Shown here: positions 3,301-36,365 of the stretch, one piece after another
How the letters are laid out: every line of letters begins with the position of its first letter
How positions within the stretch are numbered: position 1 is the stretch's first letter
Origin: Owenia fusiformis
Lineage: Eukaryota
Direction: 5' to 3'
Assembly (NCBI GenBank): GCA_903813345.2
Contig: CAIIXF020000001.1
Span: 25,420,001-25,484,000, forward strand
Length of the DNA: 64,000 bases
Program-made: the position numbers and the translations under genes
The notes under the pieces: generated by a model
What the model saw: the letters and a program-made list of their open reading frames with translations, nothing else
Databases searched by the model: none
What the model was told of the DNA's origin: nothing

Positions 3301-6300
3301 ACTGGTTTTGTTCCTCCCCTTTTGTACTTGTACTAAGACATTTATGAACTGCGAATGGAGTACGATTTTCTAGATTTCAGTGTGTGGTTTTAGTGAAGAG
3401 ATTGTTGTATGTAATGTATAAACAAGACATGCGTTAAAAGATTTCAAAGAAATCAAAAGATTTCAAATGATCTCTATAATGGATTAACGTTGAAACAATT
3501 CTCTTACTTATTTGACAATTGTCTCCGTTGAATCCTGTTGCACAAGTACACGTATACTCGTTAAGTCCATCGACGCAAGTTCCACCGTTAAGGCAAGGCT
3601 GAATCGCACAATCATTCAGATCTATAAGAAAATTGAATACATTTCTTTGGAAAAAGGAAACGGACGTTCTTATATGTTTATACTTATATTTCAACGTAGA
3701 GTATACCTGATTAATCTTCTACAAGCAATATGCTGTACAATCTTGATTCATGACAGTAATGACAAATATGCACATAAGTAATGACATATAAGTAATGACA
3801 AGTATGTAAATATACATATTTACAACTATTAACTAGCTTTATTTGTATTAAAACGTGTTAAAAGTTGACCTTTTCGACTCAGGTTAACTAAACTGCATGA
3901 GAGACAAATGCTAGATTCAGACTGATCAGTTACTACTTAACTAAGTATACGCACGATGTAATCGAAGGTTTAGTGATTTAAAAAGTAACTTCAATCAAAA
4001 ACATGTAAGATAATAAAATGTATTGGAACATCCATATTCCCAACCGGTATTTAGTACATGTTTGCTATTAGAATATATCTATATGTCAACGTATCCAAAG
4101 ACATCCTTGCGATGTAAAGTACATACCTATATCACAAACTGCCCCCATGAGACCTGGTTGACAGATACACTGGAATGCGTCCACAAGATCCACACATGTT
4201 CCATCATTTTGACAGGGGTCACTTAGACACTCGTCGATTTCTTGAATGAAATTAATATATCAATACCAATCCCTTTCAAAAAGCAGTCTACTACACTGAA
4301 TACATTCGGCCTGTGTAAGATAGGAACGATGTAACATTTCAAGTTATGTTTCATACGTATGCAAATTGGTAAGTATGTGGAAGCCCAACTGTTCTGGGCT
4401 ACCCAAGTGTTCCGACTCATACCAAACTATTCTGACAGCGCAAGTGTTCCGAATTCGATTATTCCATAAGATCTGGAAATTCAAAATAGAGGGTGACAAT
4501 AATATCTTTCTGGGAAATGAATGTTTCTCTAAAATGTTGGCCCTCTTTTGAAAATTTAGACCCAATTTTCGGAAATGTTGACACATACTCTAAAATGGGC
4601 CAAGTCAGAATACTTCGGCAAGCGTCGGAATACTTGGGTAGCCCAGAACACTTGAAGCTCCACATACGTGCGAACGCAAATTGCTTCCTTTGTTTTTTAA
4701 CTATGAATTAAAGAATTTTTATTGTGAATTTCATTTTAAGTGGAATGAAAATCATATGGTTATTGACTTTGTTCAACTTATAATTCTTATAATTCCAATG
4801 CCTATTGTTCTCTTACAATGCTGATTTGAAAATTCTTATATTTTACAAAGTGTTCATTGATGATCATCACCCTGAGATTAACAGACTTTTAAGAGAAGTT
4901 GTACATTGTAATGGGCGCTTTCTATCCTGCATGGTACAATAGTAAATAGTGTGTATGATACAATACCTACTTAATTTTGTAATTGTTGCTATGTCAAAGA
5001 TTATAATTACATACCTTCACATTCTAGAGGTGTTCCATCAGATGGTGACCATGAACTGCCACTGCATGTGTATTCAGTAGTTCCGCTTAAATATGTGTAT
5101 CCTGATTTACAGGAATATGTAACAACAGATCCCTCTAGAAACTCGCCAGCACGTGTTACATTCTCAGTAAGCTCAATCGTAGGAGACCCACATCCAATTC
5201 CTGTGAATATGTTAAAATATGTTAAAATTCTCAAGATTTTCCCTGGATAAATAACCCTCGTGCGGAAAAAATGAAAAAAAATTGGAAAAGTTCTCTCAAA
5301 TATAAAACTTATGGAAGATTTTAACTTACTCTTCCTGCAGTAGGCGATGTTAACATTATTGTTATCAGACGAAGGCCATATGAACTTTGTGTCTGATTTA
5401 AGTCCAGAGTCTTGTAAGGACGTCCAGTATTGGTCCCTGGTGCAGATCTCAGCCGCATTCGCCCAACCACTGAATGAATAACACGATCTCGTTGACTTAA
5501 CAGTGCACACATACCAGTAGTTATTAGAATAACAATGTGAATTGTGTAGATTTTGGGAATTTTGAGGAAACTCCCATTGCGTATTTATTAAGAAAATAAG
5601 CGTTTATTTGTGGGTTTCTGGTTACGTTTTGAGAGATCTTGAATTGATGAATTATAGAGTTACAGTGCGATCTTGTGCGCCAGGTGGGATTTTCTAGAGC
5701 AGAGTTCACTTGCAATTGGCAGAGACCTCCTAGAGTCGAGACAGTCTTCCTTGAGAGAGAAGGGCGACCTTTTAAAAGTGGCAGAGAGACATCCTTGAGA
5801 GGAAACAGTCCTCCTAAGCCCTCCTTGAGTAGAGAAGTTACCCAGAGTGAGAGTCTGGAAGCCGGAGTATTAGAGTCCGGAGAACTATCCAGATGGGGCA
5901 AGAGTCCAGAGGAGAAAGAAAAAAGATATACCCGGAGTGAGAATCCAGAGGAGAAGTGGAGGACAAGTTACCTGAAATGAGAGTGCCTGGAGAAGTGGAG
6001 AGAAGATAGTCGGAGTATATACATACCTGTATCAAATTGTCTCAGTTACACCAGGTTATAGCGTTAGAGAGGGACATTATGTTTCAAATGTCAAGAAGTC
6101 TTAAAATCGCCAGGAAATTTCATATTTCATACAGGCTCAAAACTGTATGTATGTAAGGTTATTTCATTTTATACCATATTGGCAATACAATAACGCTAAG
6201 CTGATTTACCTGTCATCAAAATCAGGAAGGTACCAGTCAGTCTCAAGATTCTGAGAGCACTTCCAACTGCTGTCTGAACCGATAAGCTGGCTAGCCTGCA

Positions 6301-9300
6301 CGGCAAGCGCTCCTGGACCACCAGTATCTATGCCTAAAATGAAGAATGTAAAAAGTGTAAGTGTCGGTAAAACACATTGTATAGGCTAATATCAAAGGAT
6401 ATTTTCTCATTATTAACAAATATTATAAGTAAGTATCTTCTTTTCAACATGGTGACCATTATATATCCGACTCGACCATCATTCATTAACTGTGAATATT
6501 AGTCTCGTACTACGTTCTATATTCAGATATTTTCAAAAACGAAATGAAACAGAATAATGCCATTTACTTTTTAGCCTACATACAATTATTGTTTTTATAA
6601 ATTTAATCATTGTTAATTCATTTTCAAAGTTGTTATTAGTACATACATTTATAAAAAACTATAAATTTCATCTCCCTTTTCCTAGGCAATAGGCACCACT
6701 CTTTTTTGACGTATTAATTGGTATATAAGTACACACTTAAAATAATGTGCAAATATTTTCACCCTAACAAACGGTCTTGTCATACAATAAAGTTTTACAT
6801 ATTTATTTTGTAATATAAAAAAGTGAATGAATAAATAACACATCGTGACGACTCATTTGTTCTGAATTCAGTTTGGTGAGTTCATCTAATTGCAACATTG
6901 GCCTTAGGTCTTCTACTTACAAACGATTGCAATAACTTTCGTATAGCCTTCGAGAAGCTTCACATAAACACGCTTCCAATCCAATCCACTTCCTAAATCT
7001 GCGCCATCTGCGTAAAACCTGTGTTCGTCATCGCATACTAGGTATACATTCAAGCCTTCCTCTGTATAACAAATAAAACCCCTTTGTAGCATTTATCTAG
7101 TATTTAACTTTATTTTCATCAATTTATGATATATTTACCTGCTAAGAATCAGTATTTAAAAAATCTTCCAGTATAGAGAATAATAAAGAATGAACTAGAT
7201 ATCGGCAACTCCACGGAGTAGCAAATCCCAAAGAACACCTGTATATTAATGGATCTGTATATGTCGCAAATTTAATATTTACTAATCTCCACACTTGATC
7301 AAATTGGAAGATACTAAAACTTAGATCTTGGCAAAGAATTCCCACATTTTTAAAACCATCTTGAAAAACAAATTTTTTGGCTGAATTCTAATTACAGCTT
7401 CACTCCTCAGAACGAGCCCAAGATACATCCATTTATTCAATGATGGTGAAATTCCCTGCAATCTGATTGGTCCATGTGACTTACATATTCTGTATTTATG
7501 CACTTTCCACTTAGCGCTAGATGCTGAGTGAAAATGACATCAGCGAGTCGGGATACGGTCCAGTATCCCAACGCCCCAGATTTCAATCCATGATATCTGA
7601 TGGCAAGGAATATTTCAACATCATGGAATAAGTCTTCTTATACGGTCGTGTAATATATAGATCAATGAGAGTGTGGGGAATATGACATTGCTATAATAAC
7701 ATTTTGTTTTTACATGCTAGAATGTTATAAGGAAAAAGAGAAGCATGACTTGTTCTGACTCGTAACTATTTAATGTATAATCAAGACGATCAAAAGAACT
7801 TTTATCTATGAGTAAAATGTGTACTTGTTTCGCAAAATATGCCACCAAACCCGGGAGGACAGCTGCACGTCAGGTAGCCTTGTAGGTTGTGACAGGTGCC
7901 TCCATTCTGGCAAGGGTTACTCAAACATTCATCTCGGTCTAGAAAAAAGAATATTTAAAAATTGGTGGTTGTGCGAGAACAAATCTCAAACACCCTAAAT
8001 TCGATGTCAAAGTCACTCTCTTCGAATCTGGATACTATACATACCTATGGGTTGTTTACACATTGTGCTATAAGACGTTCCCGTCTCACAGTCCATATCT
8101 TCCCATTTGTAATCATTGTCTTTTTTGAATATACCACATTGTTTATCCGGGCTACTAGGCTGGCCGACAGCCCAATCGGTAAATGTAACATGTTCCTGAG
8201 AGAACCAATAGCGATACTCATTCACATCAGAGAGGTATTGATCCGTACCTGTAAAGATCAAATATTATTATCAAATATCGAATGATTTATTGGATCATTC
8301 TCGGAAATCTGCCTGTCGATTTCGATTCTGAACCACATAGTTTCAGAAAACTGACATATTACTCTAAGCTCGACAGTTATGTTTTGTAACTCTGGTACGT
8401 TTAAAATCGAATCAACAATGCCCTTTCTAGTTTGCCATTAATATACAAGGTGCCCCGAAACAATTACACCAAAAAAAAAAACGAAATTACTTTGTGAGTG
8501 GTGAAGGAATATTCTTGAAAAGCCATCTGACAGACAATTTTTTAATGATGATGATTTTTTTTATTTTGAATTCGATGACGGGAAATAGTCATTCCCATCT
8601 CACTTGGGTACAATTTAATAAACGCGAATTAGCAAACGTGCGTTTCAAAAACATACACATACTACTGGGGTCTACATTGCTAATGAAATCCTGTTGTATG
8701 TTGAGCTTTGAAATGTTGAACTTTGAAACCACACTGGAATAGCCTGACAACGGTAAAGTCAGATAACGTTGTCACATATGGCGGACATAACTGTCGCCTC
8801 AATTAGATTTGCATGACCTGTACAGTATGTTTAATAGAGCACCTAGACTAAATTACCTTTGAACAACACTCCATCAAAGTTTCTTTATACTCATTATACA
8901 GTTAATAATGTTCTACAATCGAAATAAAGTCTTTAATTTAACCAATCAAAATGAGATACGGGACAACGGACACTGTATAACCATATATGCAGTTGTCAAA
9001 TTCAAATTCCGTTGTCACTGGCGATATCGAAGATGCTATATTGTTGCGATTCACGACCAAATGTGATCGAAATTGGAATTTCATATTATAATACATCATC
9101 ACAAGAGCTTAATACATGCACAGAATTAGCGACGATAAAATCCCATGAAATGAGGACCAAGCGATTAAACATTTGAAGCGACGGTTATGTCCGCCATTTA
9201 TGAAAACGGTATCTGACTTAACCGTTGTCAGGCTATTCCGGTGTGTGAGATGTCATTTCAAACATTTTTGAAAAGGGCATCAGGACTAATAAAATCCTAT

Positions 9301-12300
9301 TATATGCGAATTTCTAAAAACTGATATCGCATTATTTGATTTATGCAATTTCTCGCTATACTTTTTTATTGGGTTAACTCTGATGAGGTCAGGTTGATGT
9401 TTGTCATGATAAGGTACATTTTGTAGAGACGCTTTTAGACGAGGAAGGCACGTGTTGTGTGTATTATTGATTAAGTTTTAACATAGATAACTCTCTGACA
9501 ACTCTTTTTTCAAATCCTGATTGAAACCAATTAGATTATTTGGATTTCTCTGTATTTTTGTCACTCACCCATCCACCAGTCTCCTTGGTTCAGAGCTGTG
9601 AAGTAGTGTTTCAGCCACGTCCAGTCCGCGCTATCCATAACATCGACTATCGAAGCAGTATATGAATCGGTGCAATGCTTTTTGCCAGGTATAAGCGTTT
9701 TCTTTCCAACCGGAATGTAGCAATAGTTGTGTTTTTGCTTACCCGATTGTGGACAATTGTCATATACGTCTGAAATGCATTAATCAAAAAATCAAATTGT
9801 TCGGAGAGTACACAGGTAGTAGCCAAGTAGTCGGACAAGGCCAGGCACGAGGCAGGTGGGGCACCAAGTCACTTTTAGATGAATGTATTTAGACGCTCTT
9901 TCAACTAAAAGTGTTAAAATGAAACTCGAAAGTTATATACATCATTTGAAAAAAATTAACCCCGCCAGTTAAGATTTGCCTCCCCATTTTTTATCTTGGC
10001 TACGCCGGTGCAATTAGGTACCCCCCCCCCTATGGCTCTCTATTACATCCTCCATAAAGTTCCCTAAAAGTCGATCTACTACTGCGGTTGTTTAACCAAA
10101 AAGCGAATACCTGGACAGAACTTTATGTAGTACTTGGCACCGTTATATGTGCTGGTTGGCTCTTTTATAAAATCATACATGTAACAAGTTGTTTGATGAT
10201 TTTGTCTTCCCCACAATGCAGCCTGGCAAACATCGTCATTCTCACAAGCCTCAAAACAGGACTCGTCATTTGTGGCATCAGCAGCAGTAGCATAGTAGGA
10301 ACTGTCATAGTAAAACTTATTATTATCGGTAACACAGCCTGTAATAGGAAAAAATAGTATTGTACATAAATAGTACATTTTATGAATATACCAGGTCGTT
10401 CAATAAGGTATGTAATTCAATTTCAATTTCAATTTAAGTCATTTATTTCATGATTCTTATATAATATACACTATAAAAACATTCTGCTAGACACCCGACC
10501 CTAGTGGGTATATGTTGCGGTTTTACAGAAATTTTTAGAATGACATCTAGACTATATAATATAAAAGGAAGAACTTATATTATGTTACATGTAGGTATAT
10601 AAAAATTGTATTTACAATTAATGTACAATGTAGAAATGTTACCAAAAAATCAGCTGCCAGTATAAAACCAACAATACAGCATTTCAAACATTTTTGAAAA
10701 AAATGTTGGTGGGGTGTTTGCACTTTCCCTGTCTCAAAGTCCAAATTGTTTTATCATCTTTATGAGTGCTTGTCCTGGGGTAAATGGATTGGCCTAATAT
10801 ACAGATTGGGCCAAAATAATTGCGTACACAACTGATATTGCTCTCCCGTGCTTATATGATGAAACAGACAGATACTAATATTTCCACACAAGCAAGTTCA
10901 GGAAATTATTTATCCGAAGTAAAAAGGTTAACCCCTGTTTTTATTATTTTTGGTAATAAACTATTAAGGCGTACATAGGGGTGGAACACGTCATGAACGA
11001 AATGTTGAACAATTGATATTGGAATTTAAATAGGAATATTGCCAGACTATTGCAGTTAAGAACATTGACAATCACCTAATTGTATCTTTAATGATGTCTG
11101 ATCAAGTAAACAGAAGAAGGCCTAGCACTACTACTGGTGATAAACTGCTGATTGAAGCCATATTTCATGAAAAAAATAGTGCAAGTGGGATCTGTTCGAT
11201 GTTTCCCAAAAAGAATTGACATGAGAGCACTGGCCATCCCCGAAAACGCTTCACACAAAAAGTCATGGCATCAGTAGCCTTTTCTAAAAAGGGGAAAACT
11301 GACGTGTACAGATAAGGCGCATATCCAGAAACTTTTTTTAACAGGATTGAGCACCATCACATCGAGCGAAATCAACAATTGACTACCTTATTAAACAGAA
11401 AACCTGCTTTTATTCCACCTGATATGTGACCCCCAAACAGTCCGGATACTGCCCCAGTTGACTACTGTGCTTAGGGTTGCCTTGAAAACAATGCACCCTA
11501 CACCTAGGCACCCGAGATCAATTAGAATGGAATGCACTCAGTGAAAAGACGTTGAATAAAGCAATTGATCAATGGTGAATGCGGGCAAGGCTCGTTGTCC
11601 AGGAGAAGGGGGTCCTAATGAAAACGACCTCATATTACTATTAGATAACTGTGGCAATAATACATGAAACTGAAAGATAACTGTTGGAACTTTACTTGCG
11701 CCAAGTTACAAATAAATCCGTGGCATCATATGGAGTTGAGATCAATTTATATTGTGTACACATTTTTGGCCCACCCTGTATACACCTATGGAAATCCATA
11801 GAAGGAAGATTTACTTACTTTGGGGTCCGACGGGAACTGAAAAGAAAAGAAATCATTGTTTTAAATTTACAAGTATTTAATGAGCAATTTGATATCTTCA
11901 GCCAACTATTAATAGTAAATAAAGTTTTAATTTCGAAGAGAAAACTAAATGAAACGCTCACCTGTATTTATACCACACGATTTCCCGAGATCAGCTAGAT
12001 TTTCGGTACATGGATTCGAATAACCAGTTTCAAATGCTTTGGGAACACCAGTTCCAGATGCACATGATAACCGCAAGGCTTCGAGATCGCCATCATTGTT
12101 GATAGCACATTGGAAGAAGAAACAGTTATCCGTTCTATCGGCAAGAATTTCATTTTCCGCTGAGCATTCTACAATTGAGTATATTTCAATTTTACATTGG
12201 ATAAGTGAAGATCGATCAGAGGTGAAAGTTTTGTGAATATTTGCTTTTGTATACGTTGCCATTTTTCGTCTATTATATTGCTCAAACTGGAATGATAACA

Positions 12301-15300
12301 TTTTAAGAATCAGCCAAAGAAATTCAGATAAATGTCAGATTTACCTGCAAGTCGTGACCATTTAAAAAGAGAATGAACCGTTTAGTCCCTTTTTGAAAAC
12401 CCCAAAACGTAAAAACAGCAGTGAATTTCATGAATTTCAACCGTCAATGTTTTATTATCATATTAGATTTACAATATTTATACAAAGTATATGAATATTT
12501 CATCAAACCAGATAAAGGTAAAATCATTTTATCAATACATATTCATGTTAATGTCTAGTAAAATTGTGTTTCTTCTTATCGTATAGAATTTTCTATGTAG
12601 CTTCTAACTAGACTTACAAATAAACTATTCTCAGATAGAAATTTCTATACAAAATATTCCATTGTCTTTCCGTATAGAAATTTCTATGCAGATGACTCTG
12701 GAAATATCAATTTTTGTCATTTTAATTAGTTATCGGTATAGAAATTTCTATGTGAAGGCCGTCGGAAAATAATAATTATGTTACTGGTAAAACATTTCTC
12801 CTCGTATAGAAATTTCTATACTGATAAAGTCAAAAATAAAAATTGAAACGCTTCATAGAAATTTCTATATATATGGGTGCATATTTAAATTATGTTTGCT
12901 GGTATAGAAATTTCTATAAGGATAGAGTAGAAAAATAAAAATCGAATCGCTGTATAGAAATTTCTATGTGGCCCAGAAAAATTATTTTCCTAGATTGCCT
13001 GCTGTATAGAAATTTCTATATGGTCAAAAATATAAATTGAATGCCTATATAGAGATTTCTATGCGGGTGTAGTCGAAAACCTTTGGTGCTCAAAAATTAA
13101 GTTTGTCCGTATAGAAATTGCTATATGGATAAATTCAAAAAATTAAAATCGAATAATTATATAAAGAATGTTTGTAATTAGTCTTAAATTTTCGGCCTAT
13201 TGTAATACTATTTGAAATAGTATATTAGAAAATATTTGGAGGTATAGCCAATGCAGTCAAATTACATCACAGCCAGAAAAATTATTGATTTACATGGTTT
13301 TTTGTCGCTGAAAGTTATGAAAATTAAAAATAAAACATTGAGTGGCTCTGGCACATGGGGAAAAGGTTTAAGGATTTAAGCCCTTGACTGAGTGCAATGT
13401 GGAATGATCATTCTTTGAAGATGTTGGTTATTACAAAATGCATTGAGTCTCGGGCTTAAATTCTTTTCACACATTGCAAAATATTTTTACCATGTCACCT
13501 AAAAGATACGAAATCACTAAAATGACATATATTAAATGAAACTTTTTGCAAGGGTCAAGTTGGCAAACCACCAATTTTTATCTGTTGAGTGAACTTGTCA
13601 CCTTTGCAACCACCTAAGGAATGACCTTGGATGCGTTATTGGTTATTTCACGCACAATGCGTTAAGTGAAATACTGTGTTCGGATTGGCTGAAATCGGAC
13701 ACACCTTGTCTAGCTATGTGTGAATTCCAAACTAATGGAGGGTAGTGTAGGCATAGTGTAATTTGACAAACTTAGTCTAGCCAATCAAAACACAGTATTT
13801 CATATAACTGCATTACATTCTATAACCAACAACTCTCCAGATCATCCTGTCATTTCGTACAACAATGCAAACGTAATGATAAAATCAACTTGATTCTAAT
13901 TACATTTCAAAAGTTTGCCAGAGACTATACTCATTAATGTTGAGAGATAATATGGGTCACATTTGCTTCGATTTCCATTACTATACGATGAGTATGTTGA
14001 TCTTATGGGACAACTCGCGTATACTGAACATGTAGATATAAACTTTCCACAATCGCCATATATCAGCATATGATCTGAACAATTACAGGTACCGTAGTCT
14101 GGTATAAGTGTAATCATTTTTTAACAAACTACTCAATCGGCCGGGCGCGGGGACGAGCTTCCTCGTCAAATTCCTATCCCTTTGGGCAATATAGTGTATC
14201 AAATTCATTTACAAACATTTCAAGTTGTTATCGTACCGCAATAAAACAATCAAGATCATTTTTAATTTACATATTGTGGTTAAAAGCAAATATGGCCTTA
14301 CTTCCCGTACTCAATCTACACCTGATTCTAATTTAAATGTTGCGAGATGACTTGCATGGCCTACACGCTCTATTTTAGTTTTACTATTGCCATTAGAGAT
14401 GTCATGATCTTACTTTTAGATTTTAGTTTACTTTTTGAGCTTTTATATCATCCATTTTCTCGTCCTTCGAACGTCGTCCAAAATAGTTCTCTGTATATCA
14501 TTTTAAGATGTTAGAGCAAACATTTCAGGACTTATGGGACAACCCTCGTATTCTGTACATGTAGATATAAACGTTCCACAATCGCCCATCATGATGATAA
14601 ACCATGGCATCTCATTTCTTCTCAGCCCTGAGAAAGGTGAAACCGAAAGATGCTATGAGTATCAGAATGCAATCGCCATATGATCTGAACAATTCCAGGT
14701 ACCGTAGTCTGTTATAAGTGTTAGAAGGAAGTTTTCATTTTCCTCTGTTGTGTCATATTCCTCGCCCAATAATCAAACAATATATATTTGTCTTCTTGAT
14801 ATGTAATCGAGAGTACCATGTGTGTACCCTCTGGCGTGGTATTTAGATATTCCAAGATGAGCGTTTGTGTTTTCATCGAAGATATCTTTTGACTGAAACA
14901 TTAATGAACGGAAGCTATAAAATAATGTATAAAAAGTTCAGGATTTCCATTGCGAAGACAGAATGATGTACTGTTTCGTTTTAAAATACATTTTTATAAA
15001 ATCTGTTATAAAATACATGTATATCATAACCCAGCTTATTATTGTATAATGTGTTTTTATTAAAAACCTACCTCGTATGCTCATGGTTTGAGTTTACACC
15101 GGTCGACCAGTCAATCCCCCACACAGCAACCGACAATTAACATTATTAATCGCAGTGATATATCTCACCTTTCGTTTCACATTCGCATTTGACTCTAAAT
15201 GACAACTCGTAATGGGCACTGGTATTTTGAATTCTTACGCCATTTTATGCAAATCGCTTATTGTGCAACGATTAAAATGCTTTGATAGTACATTACGTTT

Positions 15301-18300
15301 GTTGTTCTTAAATTCCAAGTTGGTTATAATTACTGCATATTCAGGATATAAACTTGAACTAACTGCTGACCTGTGGACGTTATGCGCAGTATTACAAATT
15401 ACAATGATCGGTCAACTGGTCAAGTAGGAGTCTGTTTGGTAAACTCAGGCTTGCGGTTTGTTAACATACAATGTTACGCATCTCTTCAGATTGAAATTGA
15501 CACAATAGCCCACAAGATAGAAAAGCACAATTCAATATTGTATGATTTATGTATAAGGAGCTCCTCCCTTTATCTTTCCGGATTCACTCAACCTAGAAAT
15601 GTATTAAATGTATAAATGTACAAATATCTGCCTTAAGGCATGATTTAATGTAATTTGGGAGATTCAATGGTTTTATCAGTTGACTTCATGCACATGCATT
15701 GTAAGCCCCTGAGACCTTTACATTAAAACCTTGTGTATATGCCACGGTAAGATCATTCATATGTCAGGGTAAAAAAAAGATAATTTAGTCAAGAGTCATC
15801 CTTCTCGGATCAATACCTCAACAAGTCAATAAAGGATGATAAAAGTGCAGGCCTAAAATATTTTAAGGGTCACGATAAGTAGGCCATTTGGGCTAATAAT
15901 GGCCTGCTTTGTCATTAACCGGCCTCTTAATTTTCAAGCAACTAAACATTTGGAGTATAGGGGTCTAGACTTTTTCGTACGATTTTTATCAAAGTAGAGC
16001 AAACCCCATCACATTGCCAAAAGCTGGCTTCCCCCTCAATAAACTCATGTTTTCGTGCCTGTGTCCAATACTAATTTATACAAAAACATTATATTATAAA
16101 CAGCTGGAAACTTTATATCATTACTCACAATATTATTCGTCAGTCCAATGTTGATTGGCATTGGTACAGCATATAGAAAATAGTTAAATAACAATGGCAA
16201 GAATATTGTAACGATGATCTCAAAACTAAAAATAAACTACATATTATAGAGGACTTAAAATATTAGGTATACGCAATAGTTAAACCGTACATGGTGTTGC
16301 AATGCGTAAATGTATCTTTTGTTATGAAATCTACCTGAAATACACTTGTCATTCTTAACCCATTAAAATCAAACAGAATATCTCAATGATCAAATAAGAT
16401 ACACACGCGGTCCTAACTTCGACCGTTAATTTGAATTTTTGTCCTACCGGATGTTTGAAAATCAAGGATTACGAGTCTCATACTGCACCGTTTTCTTCAA
16501 ACTTGTTCCATTCAAAGCATAACACAAATCCCTTTCTGATGGTACATCATTCTCTTCAACAGAGTCCCTACTTCCAGCGGCATTTTGGTCCCCAGTTGTA
16601 AGAAGGCCTTCTAACAGCTGGGGACCAAAACGCTGCTAGAACGAGGGACTCTTTACAATAAAGTAATGCACCGACAGAAAGGCAATTTTGTTCTGCTTTT
16701 AATGGTAAAGGTTTGAAGAAAAACGGTGCAGTATGAGACTCGCAATCCTTGATTTTCAAATTAACGGTCGAAGATAGACCGCGTGATACAGTCACGACAA
16801 AAACTGAGCAACTTATATACGAGTACATGTTTTATCTTGTGGATTAAAGTGGTGAGGTCAATTGAAATAAATAGAGAAGCGCATTGGCACAATATACACT
16901 TCTACAGATTTAAATCAGACATCAAGGAAAGGGTTCCAAAATTTGAACCAGACTTATAATATAGTGAGCATTATATACCTGAGACCTGATTCATCGTTTC
17001 AAAGTGGTAAAATGCTACCGTATACGCAAGGGAGGAGACCATATTTACTCGATTGGGAATCACGAGAACATACAAAGAAAACGTTTAGAAGGAAACGCGA
17101 AACTTAAAGGTACGATTTAAGTAGTATTATGATGTCGAAATTGATCAAATAAGACACACCATAAACACATTAAGGATACCTTATGCTAATAGCCTATGCA
17201 TGTACGTTTGGGACTGATACATAATGTATATTTTTGTTTTCTAGCCACGTATGTAGCGATCCAGTGCAGCGATACGCTTGTCCATAAAGAGTGTATTTTG
17301 AAGCACGTTGTCAAGTTATTTGAAGAGTTATACAAGAAGCAAGTTCGTTGTTTTGCTAACAATATGATGAATTGATTCTGGTGGAAGATATACTTGTAAG
17401 TTAAACTTATTTAAATAGTTGCACATATCTTTAAGAATAATATTATTGTGATATTCCCATTCTAACTTGAGCTAAAAATAAGAAGGCGTATTCCTAATTC
17501 ACACGTGTGGCATCTGGGAATACATCATACAATAATAATTTAAAGATGAATGGGTACCTCAGTGGAATTGAATAATTATAAAACCGTTCACGCGTGTATC
17601 TCCTTCACATATGCCTAAAGTTGCTTCTTCAGAAAATATAGCTTACAAGGGTCGATCCAAAAGTTTTGCATCGTGTGCTCTAAAAATCTTAATACTTTAT
17701 GAGTATTTTTCATATCTTATCTCATCCACCCCATATGTAGTAGTTTCATTCTGCGTAAAATAAGCAATACATTTGATCAGTAACATAGTTTTCTGAAAAT
17801 GAAATAGCGCTTTAGTTGCTGAAATTACCAATACGGTTTAATTCATTCAAGCTCCACATACCCTGTTGTTGTGATGTATTACTATGGGAACTAGATGCAT
17901 ATGTTGAATTTTGAATTCATGGTTTATCTATACACAAAATGAAGCTACAATGCAGAGGGCGATTAAGGCAAAATATGTATATTATTCGTCAAAGATAAAG
18001 ATTTTAGAGCAAACGGTGGAGACCTTTTGGATCAATCCTCGTACACCAATCTTTGAATTTGAACCTGATGTGATATGTCATAAGTACAAGCGGATAACAT
18101 AAGCAATTTGCATTGATACATCTGAGACAGTCACGAGGTGGTGTTAATTTCACAGTTTGAAATGCTATATCTTGTAATCCCACTCTGTATGTTAATAGGA
18201 TTTTAAAGACCCAGATAAAGCCACTTGTTGTAGTCGTACACAATGATATCAATATTTGATATGGAAAACTTCTTTTGAAGGGACTTTTTGTTCGAAACAT

Positions 18301-20855
18301 TCTCAACTAATTTCGAATGATTTTGTTGTCAGTTGTCAAACACATTAAATAAGCAGTGATGATATAAATCCCATCGATTGCAAGCATACTGTATATATAT
18401 ACATGTATACTGATCTATTTTATGTTGGAAAATTATAACAATTGTTTGGGGAACGAAAGAGAAATGAACTCACAAACGCAGGAAAGTGGTTCAGAAAAAG
18501 AGACACATACATTTAAAAATACAACATTACAATCAGCGACGGCTTTGCGAATGATGTTGACCCTTGAATTGCCTATGAGCAGAAAAGATTTTGAATTTAA
18601 ATATATTTTTTGACACAAAAGGATGAAACTAAAGGTTGACACTATTAGAAAAAATGAAACCAGTAAGATAATAGTAAAATAGAATGGTAGATTAGTGAAA
18701 TTGTCATTTTGAAGTATATCATCTAATTTGTCATGTTTTGTTAATATTTTGTATGTACAGTTGTAGATAAATATAAAGCTTTCTCATGGAGAAAAGTTTC
18801 CATGATTAAAATGAATACTTCAATTCAGAAATTATAAATCTATCCTCAAGTGTGGTAATTTTCCAAATATTACACAGTATGTAGATTGTATGATTAACAA
18901 GTTCAATGGTGTCATCACATGCAATATAATGTGTCGCATACGCAAGCAGTGAGTTATGTTCAAACATGGGCTTTCAATTAGTTGAAAGCCCATGGTTCAA
19001 ACAAATACAAAAGTATTAACATCAATCATGTATTTAAAGAATTTTTAAGACCAAGCTTGATACTTTATGGATGGGCTAATGGAACCATCTTGGTATCAAA
19101 TTATGCTCGATTGAAAGAAACTTATTCGCTTTTCCTACCCCAATCGAATGATTTTTGATTTAGAGAATGCCATTCGCTTTATCCACCTTTTAATAATGTC
19201 TGAATGATGAAACTGACCGTATTTGTCTACCTTAAGGGGTACCCCTTAATGGCATTGGTGTTTGTTTAGCTATGTAATTCTACTAGAGAAGAATTGACTT
19301 TGCTTCCAGGCAGAAAAGAGATAAAAAGAGATGGAGTCATTGCAGCCTCATTCGCCACTTGAGTAGATCAACCGTTGCGTAATATAGACAGGTAAACAGG
19401 GCCGACAATCTGTGTGAATAATTAAGTGAACTATTGTCTTGCCCTATTCCATGACATTCCAAGAATTGGCAAGAGAATCGAGTAACCACTGGATTTATCC
19501 TACAAGTCTTGTACTTCATACCTGATACCTATTGTGTGCTGTAAACAGGCAGAGTCATTTAAAACTCAGATCTCTTTCTAACAAGAAGCTGCCATCAATT
19601 ATGTAAAGATATATGCAGAGGGTGCGTGGTTATATAATTCATTCGAACATGACTGTATTCACGCCTTCTATAAACTGTAAACAAAGTCAACATTTCACCC
19701 GGGGTATATTCGCGAACAAAATCCCTGGTAATACGTGCAATGTGTGACGTCATAACGGCGGGACGTAGTAATGGCGGTTTATAATGAATATTAAAGATTA
19801 CTGATAGACAGTTACTCTGGCATAGCCGAAAAGAGCACACATTCCAACGTCCATATTGTTCACCAGGAGCCGTCACCGTGAACAAAAAACATTGTGAGGA
19901 AAATTATGAAGTAAACATGTTGCATACGTTTTTGTGCATGTGTGGTTGATACCACATTTTATCATATATTTAAATGAATAAGTGAATTAAAATGTACTAC
20001 ACCCGCATAGAAATTTCTATACAGGATTTTTATATCTATACATGCATTTTTTGACCATGCTGTATAGAACTTTCTATACTGGCCATCAAGCAAAATTATT
20101 TTTCTGCGCCGCATAGAAATTTCTATACAGCATTTTTATTTATCGATCTTTTCCCTATAGAAATTTCTATACCGGCAACCAAAATATATATTTACACCTG
20201 CATAGAAATTTCTATACGAACACTTGTTTTAATTAGAAAGGCATAGAAATTTCTATACGGGGAGAAATGTTTTTCTGGTAACAGAATTAGTATTTTCCGA
20301 CGGCCTTCACATAGAAATTTCTATAGAGGTATTCAGTTTTAAATCTTCTGCTTAATCGGTAGAGAAATTTCTATACCGATAACCAAATGTTCATCAATAA
20401 CAAAATTAATATTTCCAGCCCCATCCGCATAGAAATTTCTATAGGAAAAGTCAACGGAGTCTTTTGTATAGAAATTTCTATCTGAGGATAGTGTATTTGA
20501 AAATATAGTTTGAAGTTACATAGAAAATTCTATACAATCAGAAGAAACACAATTTTACTAGACATTAACATGAATATGTATTGATAAAATGATTTTACCT
20601 TTATCTGGTTTGATGAAATATTCATATACTTTGTATAAATATTGTAAATCTAATATGATAATAAAACATTGACGGTTGAAATACATGAAATGCACTGCTG
20701 TTTTTACGTTTTTGGGTTTACAAAAAGGGACTAAACGGTTCATTCTCTTTTTAAATGGTCACGACTTCTGCGCTATCTACAGTAGAGGTGATACTCGCTA
20801 TCACTAATGCTATCAAACTCTTTGCCCCGATCACTCGACGTACATCTATCTTCAT
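273..20855 (-). CDS. Multi-exon mosaic secreted/cell-surface protein (SP-CBM14-like-PAN-CTLD-EGF-galactose-binding-like-CCP-EGFn); 3' end off-window; this allele is interrupted by a transposon at the end of exon 1
   Basis: 17 exons read by hand, all with GT-AG boundaries and compatible phases (1-1 except one phase-2 junction inside the lectin domain). No internal stops once 12349-20767 plus one TSD copy is removed. Confidence 0.85.
1302..1415 (-). CDS. EGF-like exon B
   Basis: 114 bp, tag|...|gtaag; [37 protein letters not shown]. Confidence 0.95.
1921..2034 (-). CDS. EGF-like exon C
   Basis: 114 bp, aag|...|gtatgt; [37 protein letters not shown]. Confidence 0.92.
2479..2589 (-). CDS. EGF-like exon A (duplicate)
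   Basis: Copy of 273-383 at +2206. Confidence 0.9.
3508..3621 (-). CDS. EGF-like exon B (duplicate)
   Basis: Copy of 1302-1415 at +2206. Confidence 0.92.
4127..4240 (-). CDS. EGF-like exon C (duplicate)
   Basis: Copy of 1921-2034 at +2206. Confidence 0.92.
4373..4667. mobile_element. MITE-like inverted-repeat element (intronic)
   Basis: gtatgtggaagcccaactgttctgggctacccaagtgttccgac pairs with gtcggaatacttgggtagcccagaacacttgaagctccacatac; no clear TSD. Confidence 0.65.
5015..5200 (-). CDS. Sushi/CCP domain exon
   Basis: 186 bp, phase 1-1; IGCGSPTI...[39 protein letters not shown] (4 Cys plus conserved Trp). Confidence 0.93.
5330..5469 (-). CDS. Galactose-binding-like lectin domain, exon 3 of 3
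   Basis: 140 bp, phase 2-1; GWANAAEIC...[19 protein letters not shown]. Confidence 0.85.
6210..6333 (-). CDS. Galactose-binding-like lectin domain, exon 2 of 3
   Basis: 124 bp, phase 1-2; [40 protein letters not shown](S), with the WKC...W..P.FDDS motif. Confidence 0.85.
6921..7061 (-). CDS. Galactose-binding-like lectin domain, exon 1 of 3
   Basis: 141 bp, cag|...|gtaagt; [46 protein letters not shown]. Confidence 0.85.
7825..7938 (-). CDS. EGF-like exon
   Basis: 114 bp, phase 1-1; [37 protein letters not shown]. Confidence 0.92.
8045..8248 (-). CDS. C-type lectin domain, C-terminal exon
   Basis: 204 bp; ...[19 protein letters not shown]...YKWEDMDC...TMCKQP. Confidence 0.92.
8730..9245. 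mobile_element. MITE-like element with ~70-bp imperfect TIRs
   Basis: cacactggaatagcctgacaacggtaaagtcagata... pairs with ...tatctgacttaaccgttgtcaggctattccggtgtg; no TSD seen. Confidence 0.65.
9569..9769 (-). CDS. C-type lectin domain, N-terminal exon
   Basis: 201 bp, cag|...|gtgagt; [14 protein letters not shown]...KKHC...QGDWWM(G) (WIGL-equivalent). Confidence 0.9.
9811..10010. mobile_element. Possible short degenerate hAT-type MITE
   Basis: cacaggtagtagccaag ... cttggctacgccggtg form imperfect inverted termini. Confidence 0.35.
10111..10338 (-). CDS. PAN/apple-like domain exon
   Basis: 228 bp, phase 1-1; C...[18 protein letters not shown]...TCYMY...YYIKFCP (CxxxCxxxxxC pattern). Confidence 0.88.
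10802..11778 (+). mobile_element. Degenerate Tc1/mariner element
   Basis: TA TSDs; TIRs CAGATTGGGCCAAAA.../...TTTTTGGCCCACCCTG; transposase remnant [25 protein letters not shown] at 11408-11488 (WPxxSPDLxPxD motif). Confidence 0.85.
11819..11836 (-). CDS. 18-nt linker micro-exon
   Basis: ttttcttttcag|TTCCCGTCGGACCCCAAA|gtaagt, phase 1-1, (V)PVGPQ(S). Confidence 0.7.
11962..12168 (-). CDS. Chitin-binding peritrophin-A/CBM14-like exon
   Basis: 207 bp, tag|...|gtgag; [20 protein letters not shown]...LSCASGT...NPC...SC (six Cys). Confidence 0.75.
12582..13126. repeat. Left subterminal array: 11 copies of palindrome ATAGAAATTTCTAT
   Basis: Copies near 12582, 12625, 12672, 12737, 12805, 12855, 12903, 12952, 13004, 13047, 13110. 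Confidence 0.92.
13635..13833. mobile_element. Short hairpin MITE nested in the large element
   Basis: ttggttat...gaaatactgtgttcggattggct pairs with agccaatcaaaacacagtatttc...ataaccaa. Confidence 0.6.
16404..16785. mobile_element. Fully palindromic MITE, CAC termini, 5-bp TSD ATACA (Transib-like signature)
   Basis: CACGCGGTC...GACCGCGTG; fold centre agaaggccttct (~16606); ataca at 16399-16403 and 16786-16790. Confidence 0.85.
18965..18994. mobile_element. 30-bp TIR-only remnant (P-like excision footprint)
   Basis: CATGGGCTTTCAATTAGTTGAAAGCCCATG flanked by direct repeat GTTCAAA (18958-18964, 18995-19001). Confidence 0.7.
20007..20535. repeat. Right subterminal array: 11 copies of palindrome ATAGAAATTTCTAT
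   Basis: Copies near 20007, 20062, 20112, 20156, 20201, 20242, 20310, 20361, 20428, 20467, 20519. Confidence 0.92.
20768..20855 (-). CDS. First coding exon (signal peptide) of the mosaic gene
   Basis: [29 protein letters not shown] plus G (88 bp, phase 1, matching the 12168 exon); its donor gtaaat now lies at 12344-12339, beyond the transposon. Confidence 0.85.
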
Positions 20856-21706
20856 GATTACGATCTTGCTAAAATAAAGACATTTTGTTTCGAGAACACC
20901 ACAAAATAGAGGTCGCAACCAAAGTACACGTAAAAACGTGAACACCCGTATTTCACAATGGGATTCAAAACAAAAAGTATGTATAATCTAACCGATGTAA
21001 TATCAATGTAAAAAAGATGTAGGTATTAAACCCACTGTTCAGAAACAAATGGCAGATATACTTAATTTAAAAACATCAAAAAAATAATAAGTGAGATGGT
21101 TGAAAAAACATACGTACTAATGCATTTTTCTATTTAGTGAGTTTATATTTTTATGCAAAATCGAGTCGTTTCTAAATCGACATGGGTTTACACAAAACAG
21201 TCGTTTGTTTCGTGGATTACAATCTGAAAACTTACGTGTGCCTTTTCGCTGATGGTCCAATTAGGCAACATTGCAAAATCGCTGCCACAGGAGCATACCT
21301 ATGTAATGCAATACTATCCAATTAAAGTTAACACTCTATACACAAAGCCGTGTGTCTTCAATTAAATAGTTCTAAACTGTTCAACAGATGGATTTGATAG
21401 ATATATAGACAATGAAAAAGCCATGTACCATCAATTTAAAAAAAATAAAGTCTCCTTTACACCGTACCTTTCAGTCATCCAACTTTTCCCCAAAAGGTTG
21501 TTCTTATCTTTGATCAGGCCTTGGATCTGTTACCGAACTATGGACTAAAGTTCGATATATAACTCTGAGTTCTTTAAATAGAATAATATATCAAAACGGA
21601 TTAATGCCCAAATCACCTTACAGCCAGCTACCCATTGTAATTTGTAAATATATTTGGGATTTAAGTCCATGGTAATCCGTTACCCCTTTCTGAATTGCTA
21701 TTCAAT

Positions 21707-25966: not shown

Positions 25967-28900
25967 GTTATTTGGATGATACGATACTGTTGTAAACTAA
26001 TCATATGCCTAAAAGTATATATTGGATATAAATTATTTAATACTACATATTTTTATAGTTTAAACCACAAAATGAACAGGCGCTAGATCGATGATGAATT
26101 TTAATATGCTATCTTTTAATGTTAGGGGCTTGGTGAATCAAAATAAACGGGATACGGTTATGAATTGGGTAAAAAGTAAAAACAAAGACATTACCTTTTT
26201 ACAAGAAACCCACAGTACACACGAAATTGAAAATACATATAATAATAACTGGAAAGGTGATATATATTTTTCACATGGGTCCTCTAAAAGTAGAGGAGTA
26301 ATGATATTAATAAAAGACTCTCTTGATATTAAGGTCAAACGACACATTTCTGATAAAAATGGGCGGTTTCTTATTTTAGACACTGAGATTCAAAATGAAC
26401 GCTTTCTTTTGATAAATGTTTATGGGCCAACCATCGAACAAGAAAAACTTCCATTTTGGACTGAATTCGCGCGTAAGATAAACGATGACACTCATTTGAT
26501 AATAGGCGGCGATTTCAATATCATATTCAGTGCAGATCTTGATAGATGTGGTGGAAATCATAAAGTTAATAAACAGATTATCAATTTTTTTGACACACTC
26601 ATGCTTAATTTAGACTTGGTCGATTTATGGCGTCTTAGAAACCCCAACAGAAAAAGATACACTTGGCGCCAGAAAAATCCTACAATAATGAGTAGGTTAG
26701 ATTTGTGGCTGTGTTCAGATAACCTCCAACATAATGTTGAGAAGATTGATATAGATACAGGTATTAAGTCGGATCATTCTCCTATAGTCATTTATTTTAA
26801 TAATATAAATAAAAAACCAGGCCCAAACCACTGGCGGTATAATAATAGCCTTTCAAATGACATTGATTTTAAACATGAACTTGGGCAAAATATTCCCAAA
26901 TGGTTAAATGAAGTTACAGAAATTGAAGATCAAAGAGTTGTCTGGGATTTTATTAAATACAAAATACGACACTTTACCATTGCTTATTCAAAGAAGAGGG
27001 CAAAGGCTAGAAAGAAAAACAAATGTGACCTAGAAAACAAACTTAATACGCTACAGAGCAATTTAGATAAAAATCCAAATGACATAGAAATTAAAAATGC
27101 ATACTACAAATGCCAATTAGAGCTTGAGACTCATTTTGACTATGTAACACAAGGTGAGAGAATTCGATCAAGATCTCAAGATTTTGTTGAAGGGGAGAAA
27201 GGCTCAAAATATTTTCTTCAACTAGAGAAACAAAATGCTGCAAAAAGTAACATAACACAATTAAAAAATGCAAATGGAGTAATATCTAAAGATTTTAAAA
27301 TAATTCAAAATAAAATCAAGGAATTTTATAAACAGCTTTATTCAAAATCAAAAGCAAATGTATATAATAAAAATGCAGATGTATTCTTAGAAAATAATAA
27401 TATTCCTAAGCTAACCGAGGAGGAAAAATTGTCTATGGAATGTCAAATCACAGAGCAAGAATGTTATAAAATTCTTCAAACTTTTAAAAATAATAAGTCC
27501 CCCGGAAGTGATGGTCTTACTATTGAATTTTATTCTACATTTTGGGAAAAGATAAAAACAACTTTTATGAATTCTATAGGTTTCACATTTAATAAAAAGG
27601 AAATGTCAGTTTCTCAGAGAGAAATCATTATGAAACTCATTCCGAAAAAAGGAAGAGATGTCATGTTTTTAAAAAACCAACGTCCGATTTCATTAATAAA
27701 TGTGGATGCAAAAATAATTTCCAAAGTTATGTGCAAGCGCATTGAATCTGTATTAGGCAAATTAATTAAATCAGATCAAGCAGCATTCATAAAAGAAAGA
27801 CAAATGGCTGGCTGAAATTATAAGATTAATAGATGACATGATGTTTTATACAGAAGATGAGAATATAGGGGGCGCTTTTGTAGCTGTTGACTTTCTCAAG
27901 GCATTTGATTCTCTAAGCCACGATTTTTTAATAAAAGCTTTAGAAAAACTAAATTTCGGAGAATATGTTATTTCGTGGGTTAAAATATTGTATTGTAATA
28001 TAACTGCCCAAGTTATGAATTTGGGGTTCTGTGGGGAAAAATTTAAAATAGAAAAGGGAATTAAACAAGGTGATCCTTTATCACCAGTACTCTTCATCAT
28101 TGCAGTAGAGTTTCTAGCCCAAAATATAAGAGATGATGCATTAATAAAAGGAATTCAAATTGGTAATAAAGAAATAAAACTGAGCATATATGCAGATGAT
28201 ATGACGTTGTTCGTTCGGGATAAAAACTCTATACTGCAGTCAATGAAAGTACTTGATAGCTTTGAAAAATGTAGTGGCCTTAAAACAAACTTAGACAAAA
28301 CTGAGCTCTTTACAATAGGAAGATTTAAAGATCAAATTTGGGACATTGAACACTTGAAACAAGTTCAAGAAATTAAAATTCTTGGAGTGTATTTTAATTA
28401 TGATAGAAAGCTCAAAGCAGAGAAAAATTTTAGGTCGACAATTAATCACCTTAAGCAGGTATTGAGCCTATGGCAAAGTAGAAATTTGACAATTTTAGGT
28501 AAAATACAGATCGTAAAAACTTTTGGGCTGTCAAAATTTAGCTTTATTAGTTCAGTTATTGAAACAGATGATTGTTATGTAAAGGAAATAAACGGAATTG
28601 TTTTTAAATTTATTTGGAACGGAAATGACAAGATTAAAAGAAAAGCTCTTATTTCAACAATTAAAAAAGGAGGACTCAATATGAGCGACCTCAAAACCAA
28701 AATTCAAACCTCTCAATTAAGATGGGCCCAAAAGCTTTTAAAGGATACTAAAAAGGAATCACAATGGACAATTATTCCAAATCATTATCTCCATAAATAT
28801 GGCGGGCTTTTACTTTTGCTAAACTGCAATTTTGACATAAATAAGCTAAATGCAATTAGCCCAAGATTTTATCATAATATTTTAAAGGCATATACGCTTA

Positions 28901-29879
28901 TAAGGAGACCAAAGAAAAATGCATTGGATGAAATAATTTGGAATAATGAGAACATTGTCATCAGAAATAAATCAATATTTTGGAAGGAATTTTATGATAA
29001 AGGTTTTCTAAGAATCAAAGATGTTATGCTTAATGGTATGGTTAAATCATGGAATCAGGTCAAAATGCAAACTGGACTTTCACACAATTATATGCTAAAA
29101 TGGTTTGGCCTCATTCAGGCAATACCATCAGATTGGTTAAGAGTACCGAATGGAAATATGAATGACCAGGTATCTCTAGATAATATAACAGTAATAAAAA
29201 GCGATACAGAAGTCAACTTTTTAAAATGTACATCTAGAGAATTTTATAAAATATTGCTGGAAGCTATTGCAGAATATCCAACAGCAAAACACACTTTATC
29301 AGATAAATATCATATTGAAGAAGAAGATTGGTCATTTTACTATGAACACTTTCATAAAACCCTGACATATTCAAAACATAAGGCATTTCAATATAAGCTC
29401 TTAAACAATATTTTGTATACAAATAGTGAACTTTTTCAATACAAAATAACTCCTTCACCAATGTGTGAGTTTTCCCATGTGAACATAGAAACTTGTGACC
29501 ACATCTTCTTTAATTGTGATTATACCAAACAGTTTTGGAAGTCATTAATAGATAATACATTAAAAGATCTCGAAAACTTTTCTCTGCTTACAGTATTATT
29601 TGGTAGCCCAAAATGGAGTGATTTTGAAAATATGGTAATTATTATAGGAAAGTACTACTTATATAATAAGAAAATGCAACAAGAGCCTCCAAATTATTAC
29701 AACTTTAAGGCATATTTAGATTATTGTTTAAAAATGAAAATAGATTTTAACAGTATGATGGTATGAGTGGAGAATGTGAATGAATGGGTAATGGAGTGAC
29801 TTTTATAATTTTTCACTTATATGTATACATTTTAAATTTGATGAATAAAAAAAAACAAAAAAGAAAAAAAACAAAAAAA
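25967..29879 (+). mobile_element. L1/Tx1-clade LINE, 5'-truncated (ORF2 only)
   Basis: TSD AACATGTGCGT (25956-25966, 29880-29890); AATAAA then A-rich tail at ~29844-29880; APE plus RT ORF2. Confidence 0.95.
26091..29766 (+). pseudogene. LINE ORF2 (APE endonuclease, reverse transcriptase, C-terminal zinc knuckle) with one frameshift
   Basis: SFNVRGL, FLQETH, GGDFN, SDH; KSPGSDG, RPISLIN, DFLKAFD, GIKQGDPLSP, YADD. A 4-bp duplication at 27807-27814 splits it into ORFs 26091-27815 and 27838-29766. Confidence 0.93.
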
Positions 29880-29897: not shown

Positions 29898-30870
29898 CTC
29901 ATTTCACCTTGCACTCACACTTGACCAATGCTTGGCATGCCTTAGCTGCTTGAGGAAAGCCTGTACATAGTGGCATCAGAAGGGACATGTCATACTGCCA
30001 GCCACATGTTGTGAACTCGATAACCATTTTGGTTATGGCACCAAACTAAACTGCCTTGGTTCGCAAGTTAAGATTTTCTGTGCAAGGGCTCCTTTTGTTG
30101 GTAGTACTTTAATTTGTCAATGACTGTATGACCGTTACAGAACATTAGCCTTCGTGCTGCATTGATATATAGCTGCTGGTTGCTGGTTCGATCAAATACT
30201 AAACCAGTAAAATGTTCCAGGGACTGAATGACTTGAACTGACAAAGGCAGGTTTGTTGTAACCATTTGTGCCACTTGTAGAAAAGCTGGAGTAACTTCCT
30301 TGAACACATTCCATAGATTGAAGGGCAGATTCTTAGCTATGGCCAAAGAATCGTGCAGTTCATATAATATAATTTAATACCTGTAATTTTTGAGAGGTCC
30401 GAAGGCAATCCAGATTGACACCTATTGCACCCTAATGCTGCAGCCATGGCAAGAAAAAGGACATCAGTATCTCCACTTCTGATTATGAAGTATTTTCTAC
30501 CCTCTGAGGTCATCTGTTTTATATGAACAAAGAGCCTAGTGTCAGCTTTTTCATGAGTACAAGGATCAATCATTGCTGTATCTGGCAATTGAGGAAAGCA
30601 CTGAAGATATTCCCAAATAGTAGTTATCATTTGCTTTTCATTAACAACAACCTCAGACATAAAGTTGGCCAGGAATGCAAACAGCCTAGTCTGGTTCCAT
30701 TGGTTGTTAGAAAGGCTGGCCAATTCTTTGGCATTTGTGCATCTCTGCATAAATCATCCTTCTTGCACCAGTGCCACAATAAATCCTTGTTAGGGACTTC
30801 TCACTGTTTTGTAGGTAAATGTAAACATTCCAGACAACATCTAATCTTAGGAATCACTGCAGATGATTCT
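29898..30870 (-). mobile_element. Degenerate Academ-like transposon protein fragment (XPG/PIN-like region plus Cys-rich end)
   Basis: DPCTHEKADTRLFVH...IIRSGDTDVLFLA; INAARRLMF; PQAAKACQALVKCECK; multiple frameshifts. Confidence 0.7.
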
Positions 30871-33003: not shown

Positions 33004-33016
33004 TAAGCACGGAGTC

Positions 33017-33430
33017 ATGAGACTTACAACAAAAGCAGACTTACTTAAATGTCAAGAAGCTAAGCCAGCTGGATCTGAAGTATTGGAAAAGCCACCTACA
33101 GATGCAATTTTAATAGATGGCATCCTTATGGTCCATGTGATGCATCCTGGTGTGGCTACCAACTTCCAAGAATATGGTACCAATGTCTCATCCCAAGTAA
33201 GGCAGCCTATTGAAGGTGTTTCAAGATAAAATGTTATCTGGGGTGTTTACCTATAAAACAGTAGGAAGTCCCTGACAAGGATTCATGGAATTGGTTAGGG
33301 TTTCTAAGAAACAACCAGAACAAGACTGAGCTGTTAGCATTCCTGGCCAACTCTATTTTTGAGGTTGATGTTTATATGACTATTGTGGAATCTGTTAAGT
33401 GCTTTCCTCAGTTGCCAGTAACAGTTATCA
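33017..33430 (+). mobile_element. Second degenerate Academ-like fragment, opposite orientation
   Basis: KADLLKC...DAILIDGILMVH...TNFQEY...FLRNNQNKTELLAFLAN; DNA similarity to the reverse complement of ~30590-30720. Confidence 0.6.
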
Positions 33431-35819: not shown

Positions 35820-36365
35820 TTACACATCATCGTCTATTGTATAATCTTCAATAGTATAATAATCCAAAGTAGTGTTTTCCGCAGTATTATCCAATTATAA
35901 AGGCTGAAATATGGCCAAAACAGTACCATTTAGTAACAATAATTGATTCATACATCATGATCAACTATCATATAATCTTCCACTATATAATCCAACGCAG
36001 TGTTTTCACTTTCCAAGGGCAAAGCAGTATTATCCGAATGAAGAGCATGAATATAGTACAATACGGCCAAAACAATGTCATTTAATCAAGTAACAGTTAT
36101 TGTTTTACACATCATGGTCAACTATTGCATAATCTTCCACTATTTAATCCGACGCAGTGTTTTCACTTTCCAAGGGCAAAGCAGTATTATCCGAATGAAG
36201 AGGCCTGAATATAGTACAATACGGCCAAAACAATGTCATTTAATCAAGTAACAGTTATTGTTTTACACATCATGGTCAACTATTGCATAATCTTCCACTA
36301 TATAATCCAACGTAGTGTTTTCACTTTCCCAAAGCGAAGCAGTATTATCCGATTGTAAAGGCTGA
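35820..36365 (-). repeat. Four tandem ~158-bp copies of the mucin C-terminal coding segment plus stop
   Basis: Stops at 36263, 36105, 35948 and 35820, each preceded by ...EDYxI(V)D(H/D)DV. Confidence 0.88.

Follow-up and report, generated by a model that had tools for sequence, protein, structure and literature searches.

In a 64,000-nucleotide stretch of the Owenia fusiformis genome (assembly GCA_903813345.2, contig CAIIXF020000001.1, positions 25,420,001 to 25,484,000 of the forward strand), we examined a transposon that lies exactly at the boundary between the putative first exon and the first intron of a minus-strand gene, which is predicted to encode a secreted multi-domain protein. This whole 64-kb stretch is called the window here, and all coordinates are positions within it. 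The coding part of putative exon 1 (20768..20855, minus strand) begins with an ATG at 20855-20853, extends for 29 codons plus one base (88 nt, phase 1), and ends with ...GATAGCGCAG at 20768; the encoded peptide starts MKIDV and resembles a signal peptide. Directly behind this exon on the minus strand, at 20767, the element opens with AAGTCGTGACC... (over a longer stretch, AAGTCGTGACCATTTAAAAAG). The reverse complement of AAGTCGTGACCATTTAAAAAG forms the other end of the element, which closes with ...GGTCACGACTT at its last base, 12349. From the minus-strand letters and the repeat arms, the transposon therefore spans 12349..20767 and is 8,419 bp long. A second GCAG (12348-12345) follows immediately, and then GTAAAT, with the donor GT at 12344-12343. 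These letters open the original intron 1 (12169..12344, 176 nt, minus strand), whose acceptor ttgtag ends at 12169. An earlier note on this DNA had placed an 8.4-kb element between the last base of exon 1 and its donor, and both the placement (between 20768 and 12344) and the size hold; the span it gave, 12339-20855, was too wide and took in exon 1 and some flank.

The element is flanked by GCAG on both sides on the minus strand (CTGC on the plus strand), a 4-bp target-site duplication of which one copy is the last four bases of exon 1 (20768..20771) and the other lies at 12345..12348. Its ends are long terminal inverted repeats (TIRs). A repeat finder delimited core arms of 366 nt with 93% complementarity, at 12349..12714 adjoining the intron and 20402..20767 adjoining exon 1. 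In a pairwise alignment the two arms differ at only 4 positions over their first 228 nt, and their likeness is recognisable over ~790 nt, with weaker similarity reaching ~13140 on one side and ~19980 on the other. Both termini read AAGTCGTG and start with AAGTC. Each arm also holds an array of a 16-bp perfect palindrome, TATAGAAATTTCTATA. A scan of the window that allowed ≤2 mismatches found this palindrome 22 times, where chance alone predicts 0.02 occurrences, and all 22 fall inside two subterminal regions: 11 copies at 12582..13125, spaced ~40-130 bp apart, and 11 copies in a mirror array at 20006..20534. This clustering is far beyond chance. The palindromes are presumed to be transposase-binding sites.

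Contigs from two DNA sequencing runs of different studies (X1 and X4) and raw reads from two RNA runs (X21 and X23) were placed on positions 4800-21600 of the window. Each DNA run contains one contig in which 12344 is joined to 20768, such that the element and one copy of the duplication are missing. The X1 contig (650 nt, depth 55.2) covers 11989-12344 and then 20768-21063, and the X4 contig (834 nt, depth 15.5) covers 11738-12344 and then 20768-20979; the shorter side of the joint comprises 255 letters in X1 and 224 in X4. Both joints skip 8,423 bases, that is 8,419 plus 4, and four bases (the GCAG at 20768..20771) fit either side, which independently fixes the duplication length at 4 bp. 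The depth of the empty site equals that of neighbouring single-copy contigs (52-75 in X1 and ~12-19 in X4), and is thus about full depth in both samples. The earlier note had proposed a search for exon 1 ...GCAG running directly into GTAAAT, and precisely this arrangement is present in both DNA runs. Because the empty allele is present in X1 and X4, the insertion is polymorphic and not fixed in the species.

The 8,419-bp copy is non-autonomous, since no transposase was found among its 70 frames of ≥40 amino acids: none reached the Pfam cut-off, and only chance-level rows were returned (best E 0.022). The longest stop-to-stop frame in the element is 116 amino acids. Transposase for this copy must therefore come from elsewhere. 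Contigs internal to the element have a summed depth of ~800-1,000 in X1 (single-copy, ~55-75) and ~100-140 in X4 (single-copy, ~12-19), and differ from the assembled copy at 6 of 455, 2 of 506, 4 of 546 and 8 of 721 letters, which makes them ~99% alike. The family accordingly comprises about ten copies or more that are nearly identical, although summed contig depth indicates their number only roughly, and it has therefore been mobile recently. The ~99% likeness fits a recent insertion event, as the earlier note had supposed, and so does the empty allele in X1 and X4. A shorter form of the family, with 18 unrelated letters linking 12821 to 20155, occurs in both DNA runs. When stretches of the TIR were used as exact patterns to look for other copies, no match came from metagenome contigs (two scans) or from genome contigs. 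Four bins inside the element reach depths of 40,000-180,000 and represent nested high-copy repeats. One of these is a 382-bp foldback miniature element at 16404..16785, flanked by ATACA on both sides, with a summed depth of ~175,000 against ~55-75 for single-copy sequence in X1. The same foldback element also appears in the RNA reads, several of which start or stop at 16441.

Downstream of intron 1, the gene continues on the minus strand with the acceptor ttgtag|AATGC at 12168 and seven open exons, each of phase 1-1 with an AG in front and a GT behind; the earlier description of the downstream exons as intact and in frame is correct for all seven. Exon 2 (11962..12168, 207 nt, phase 1-1) encodes a cysteine-rich domain with relatives among annelid secreted proteins. 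It is followed by a PAN-like exon at 10338-10111 (Pfam E 0.0099, below the cut-off), two lectin-like exons at 9769-9569 and 8248-8045 that were named by eye and have no Pfam match, a Sushi exon at 5200-5015 (Pfam 1.7e-6), and two EGF exons at 3621-3508 and 1415-1302 (Pfam 3.3e-10 for each), and the gene continues past the window edge. A HMMER search of 1.84 billion representatives with exon 2 found 4 relatives (E 5e-13 to 2.6e-5), two of which are annelid proteins, one of these two carrying the UniRef name 'Secreted protein'. In each of the four, a leader-like N-terminus comes first and the exon-2 domain follows immediately, starting at residue 16-34. The predicted fold of this domain has a mean predicted local distance difference test (pLDDT) score of 66.4, from a 5-row alignment, and a Foldseek comparison of the model with the PDB gave nothing at E ≤ 0.001; the top rows were chitin-binding Avr4 (E 0.67-2.3) and chitotriosidase (E 2.7), a weak lead toward a chitin-binding-like fold. 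The window also contains a tandem duplication (117-1572 and 2323-3778, offset 2,206 bp) with frames, including the EGF exon, that have identical translations. Further very high-copy repeats lie within introns of the gene, at 7044-7604, 8727-9287 and 10410-10970, with summed depths of 26,000-154,000 against ~55-75 in X1, and are transcribed at a low level in both RNA runs.

These observations suggest a simple history. An 8,419-bp cut-and-paste element would have inserted into the GCAG that closes exon 1 of the minus-strand gene, duplicating these four bases and pushing the original donor GTAAAT 8.4 kb away, behind the second GCAG. The host product would be a secreted mosaic of a leader, a cysteine-rich domain, PAN-like, lectin-like and Sushi domains, and then EGF repeats. 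Transcripts from the filled allele would run into the element and either stop after five added codons or take out-of-frame GTs, and the recent mobility of the family would have been driven by a transposase that is presumably encoded elsewhere. Taken as a whole, we consider it likely that a non-autonomous cut-and-paste insertion at the GCAG ending exon 1, still polymorphic, disables one allele of a gene for a secreted protein. Several points weigh against this interpretation. A search for sequencing runs that contain this DNA listed no RNA run. The two RNA runs, of which 6% (X21) and 12% (X23) was read, yielded stray reads, near-zero exon depth and no joints, and only single X21 reads lie over 10220 in the PAN-like exon and 12072 in exon 2. 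Where the leader is presumed to be cleaved (D-S-A), the D at -3 is an unusual residue under the -3/-1 rule. A word-based search with exon 2 among proteins of 120-2000 amino acids returned none at E ≤ 0.001, and therefore no annotated orthologue confirms the exon structure. The population evidence consists of two other individuals only. Finally, no run showed a filled junction among the matches listed, and the insertion is so far attested by the assembly alone.

The strongest competing explanation is that the polymorphic insertion is real, but that the signal-peptide exon is a chance reading frame and the true first exon lies elsewhere, in which case the element would occupy only an intron or an upstream region and would do little harm. 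The missing RNA junction, the lack of an annotated protein containing exon 2, and the D at -3 would all agree with this explanation, as would a second candidate first exon 1,118 nt upstream (MSLHFGAG..., donor match 6/9). In the reconstructed empty allele, all ATG-to-GT candidates of phase 1 within ≤6 kb upstream of exon 2 were collected (n = 56). The MKIDV exon ranks first of the 56 both on donor match and on hydrophobic core. Its donor in the empty allele, CAG|GTAAAT, matches 8 of 9 positions of the consensus MAG|GTRAGT and is separated from exon 2 by just 176 nt. The MKIDV exon also closes in phase 1, as required by exon 2 and every further exon downstream, in agreement with the phase 1-1 structure of all seven. 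The position of the exon-2 domain directly behind a leader-like stretch in all four relatives likewise speaks against a chance frame. On this evidence the MKIDV exon is probably the real first exon of the gene, and a first exon located elsewhere appears unlikely, though it is the alternative that we take most seriously.

If exon 1 is accepted, the consequences for the insertion allele can be read from its frame. In the filled allele, exon 1 is followed by AAGTCGTGACCATTTAA. Read-through from exon 1 adds five codons, EVVTI (...DSAEVVTI*), before a TAA stop at 20751..20753 on the minus strand; the earlier note had given the same peptide but located the stop at 20751, which is only its last base. 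The GTs at element positions +2 and +5 leave exon 1 in phase 0, whereas exon 2 needs phase 1, as the earlier note had correctly stated for these two nearest GTs. The GTs at +36 and +60 are in phase 1, yet both lie behind the TAA, such that there is no in-frame GT before the read-through stop. Because read-through stops early and no usable in-frame donor exists, the insertion allele is predicted to be a null allele from which no secreted protein is made. One could propose instead that normal protein is still made, with the element removed or skipped during splicing through a recursive step or a cryptic donor. A short pyrimidine run followed by AG|GTAAAT is indeed present where the far end of the element meets the duplicated GCAG, and the earlier note had likened these letters (CTTGCAG|GTAAAT) to a recursive splice site. 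The letters are as described, but the proposed function does not hold. The first step of recursive splicing needs a donor directly behind exon 1, where the filled allele has AAGTCG; with no usable donor left on exon 1, such splicing is impossible, and we rejected this rescue on frame grounds. With the phases given above, and with no such joint seen in the RNA (at a depth near zero), production of normal protein by a bypass of the element is very improbable.

Compared with the window, the empty-site contigs differ on the intron-1/exon-2 side at 12 of 356 letters in X1 and 9 of 607 in X4, and on the exon-1 side at 1 of 296 and 0 of 212, respectively. Eight of the intron-1 changes, at 12189-12274, are common to X1 and X4. 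Within ~100 bp of intron 1 (12189-12289), the empty-site contigs show a cluster of differences from the insertion haplotype, 11 in X1 with 8 of these common to X4. This cluster beside the insertion indicates that the insertion sits on a locally distinct haplotype. Coding changes were found at 12072 (exon 2, X1; R to Q) and 5042 (S to A), and those at 10220 and 5505 are silent. It might be argued that an older insertion was once common here and was precisely excised in X1 and X4, which would make their empty state derived rather than ancestral; cut-and-paste elements do excise, and some, such as piggyBac, do so precisely. However, the empty site carries no footprint: exactly one GCAG is left and the exon/donor junction is intact, as expected of a site that was never occupied. 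It is moreover present at full single-copy depth in both runs, and a single insertion is a more economical account than precise excision on two independent occasions. We regard this order of events as highly unlikely. Least credible of all is an assembly artefact, in which a repeat copy was misplaced in the contig: the element is multi-copy and its filled junctions do not appear among the matches listed for any run, but a perfect 4-bp duplication surrounds complete inverted ends and is matched exactly by the skip of 8,419 + 4 bases. A recent insertion at the end of exon 1 thus remains our preferred interpretation.

With respect to known transposons, the element has the features of a class II TIR element, namely inverted ends, a duplication that was checked against the empty site, and several copies, but no transposase. 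By comparison with the described termini and targets of known families, made without a literature search for this exact element, it appears as an unclassified non-autonomous TIR transposon. Subterminal motif arrays are known from CACTA-type and other elements. Those of the CACTA/EnSpm-Chapaev (CMC) group occur in both orientations and are thought to bind transposase; CMC elements make duplications of 2-4 bp, those of Chapaev being 4 bp long, and their termini start with CAC(TA). The present element resembles them in its short duplication and in the many short subterminal motifs near each end, and differs in that its motif is a perfect 16-bp palindrome. Membership in CMC fails on the CAC terminus (AAGTC here), and no transposase was detected. 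Kolobok elements duplicate TTAA.

PiggyBac also duplicates TTAA (PMC5199201), and the KolobokP forms abundant in bivalves carry long terminal repeats that are direct rather than inverted (PMC9587614). The 4-bp length of the duplication is common to piggyBac, Kolobok and the present element, but a duplication of GCAG instead of TTAA rules out membership in either. Sola elements share the combination of a 4-bp duplication and terminal inverted repeats (PMC3627910, PMC3845634). Sola2 has AT-rich duplications and TIRs of 12-21 bp (PMC3627910), and an AWWT target is the hallmark of Sola1 (PMC3845634), whereas the present copy lies in GCAG, although one copy cannot define a target preference, has ~790-bp arms, and offers no transposase for comparison. 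The Ginger elements come close in having 4-bp duplications, TIRs of tens to a few hundred bp, and marine-invertebrate hosts (PMC2836005). Their termini are TGTNR and their targets are CCGG/CCGT for Ginger1 and RTATAY for Ginger2 (PMC2836005). The AAGTC termini and the GCAG target rule out membership in Ginger1 or Ginger2, and no integrase-like frame was found. Because of its AAGTC termini, a target that is neither AT-rich nor TTAA, and ~790-bp ends with 11 palindromes each, the family could conceivably be a separate, still-active lineage outside the described superfamilies with 4-bp duplications, with an autonomous partner whose undescribed or very divergent transposase would bind the palindromes as a dimer. 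We offer this as a speculation that is more probably wrong than right by a wide measure.

Insertional null alleles caused by non-autonomous TIR elements are well known, for example Ds and dSpm in maize and P elements in Drosophila. The present allele is similar in having a target-site duplication, in the separation of essential signals, and in its segregation against an intact empty allele. It differs in that the break falls on the exact exon/intron boundary and duplicates the last four exon bases, and in that the effect on RNA is a prediction. Introner-like transposons create introns by using the duplication as a splice site, and the duplicated ..CAG beside GT is a comparable splice-site-like junction at one end of the element. 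In contrast to introners, however, this 8.4-kb element has no donor of usable phase at its other end, and it sits on an existing intron boundary, such that no removable intron was made.

The segregating insertion is expected to abolish one allele of a secreted multi-domain protein whose PAN-like, lectin-like, Sushi and EGF set is typical of invertebrate recognition or adhesion molecules. The insertion shows that the transposon family has been mobile very recently in Owenia fusiformis, and it provides a ready presence/absence marker. Events of this kind are well known; this one is ordinary as well, if tidy in its precise boundary hit and its well-formed long-TIR element. Knowledge of transposons or splicing is unchanged by it, and its value lies in an annotated allele and in an entry to an unclassified long-TIR family.

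The remainder of the window contains several further features. An Rfam search of positions 1-36500 gave no matches. Several frames of 77-138 amino acids without a Pfam match lie at 30071-30753, 31527-31904 and 32996-33552; those at 30340-30753 and 33265-33552 share similar peptide stretches and may be remnants of another repeated element. A non-long-terminal-repeat (non-LTR) retrotransposon occupies 26076-29763 on the plus strand, with frames of 579 and 657 amino acids that contain endonuclease, reverse-transcriptase and zf-RVT domains and are apparently split by a single frame shift close to 27800. The database sequences most similar to its reverse-transcriptase frame reach no more than 39% identity, and those with a name come from a stony coral. 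From 36263 to 64000, the minus strand holds one uninterrupted frame of ≥9,245 codons that passes the window end. This frame is built of a 141/282/423-bp tandem repeat, with ~190 units of 141 bp and 83-85% matches, and its composition is flat over 27 kb (GC content 0.48, AT skew -0.26). It encodes a Thr/Ala/Asp-rich mucin-like chain, and at 36266-37000 this chain closes with a hydrophobic stretch and a short tail.

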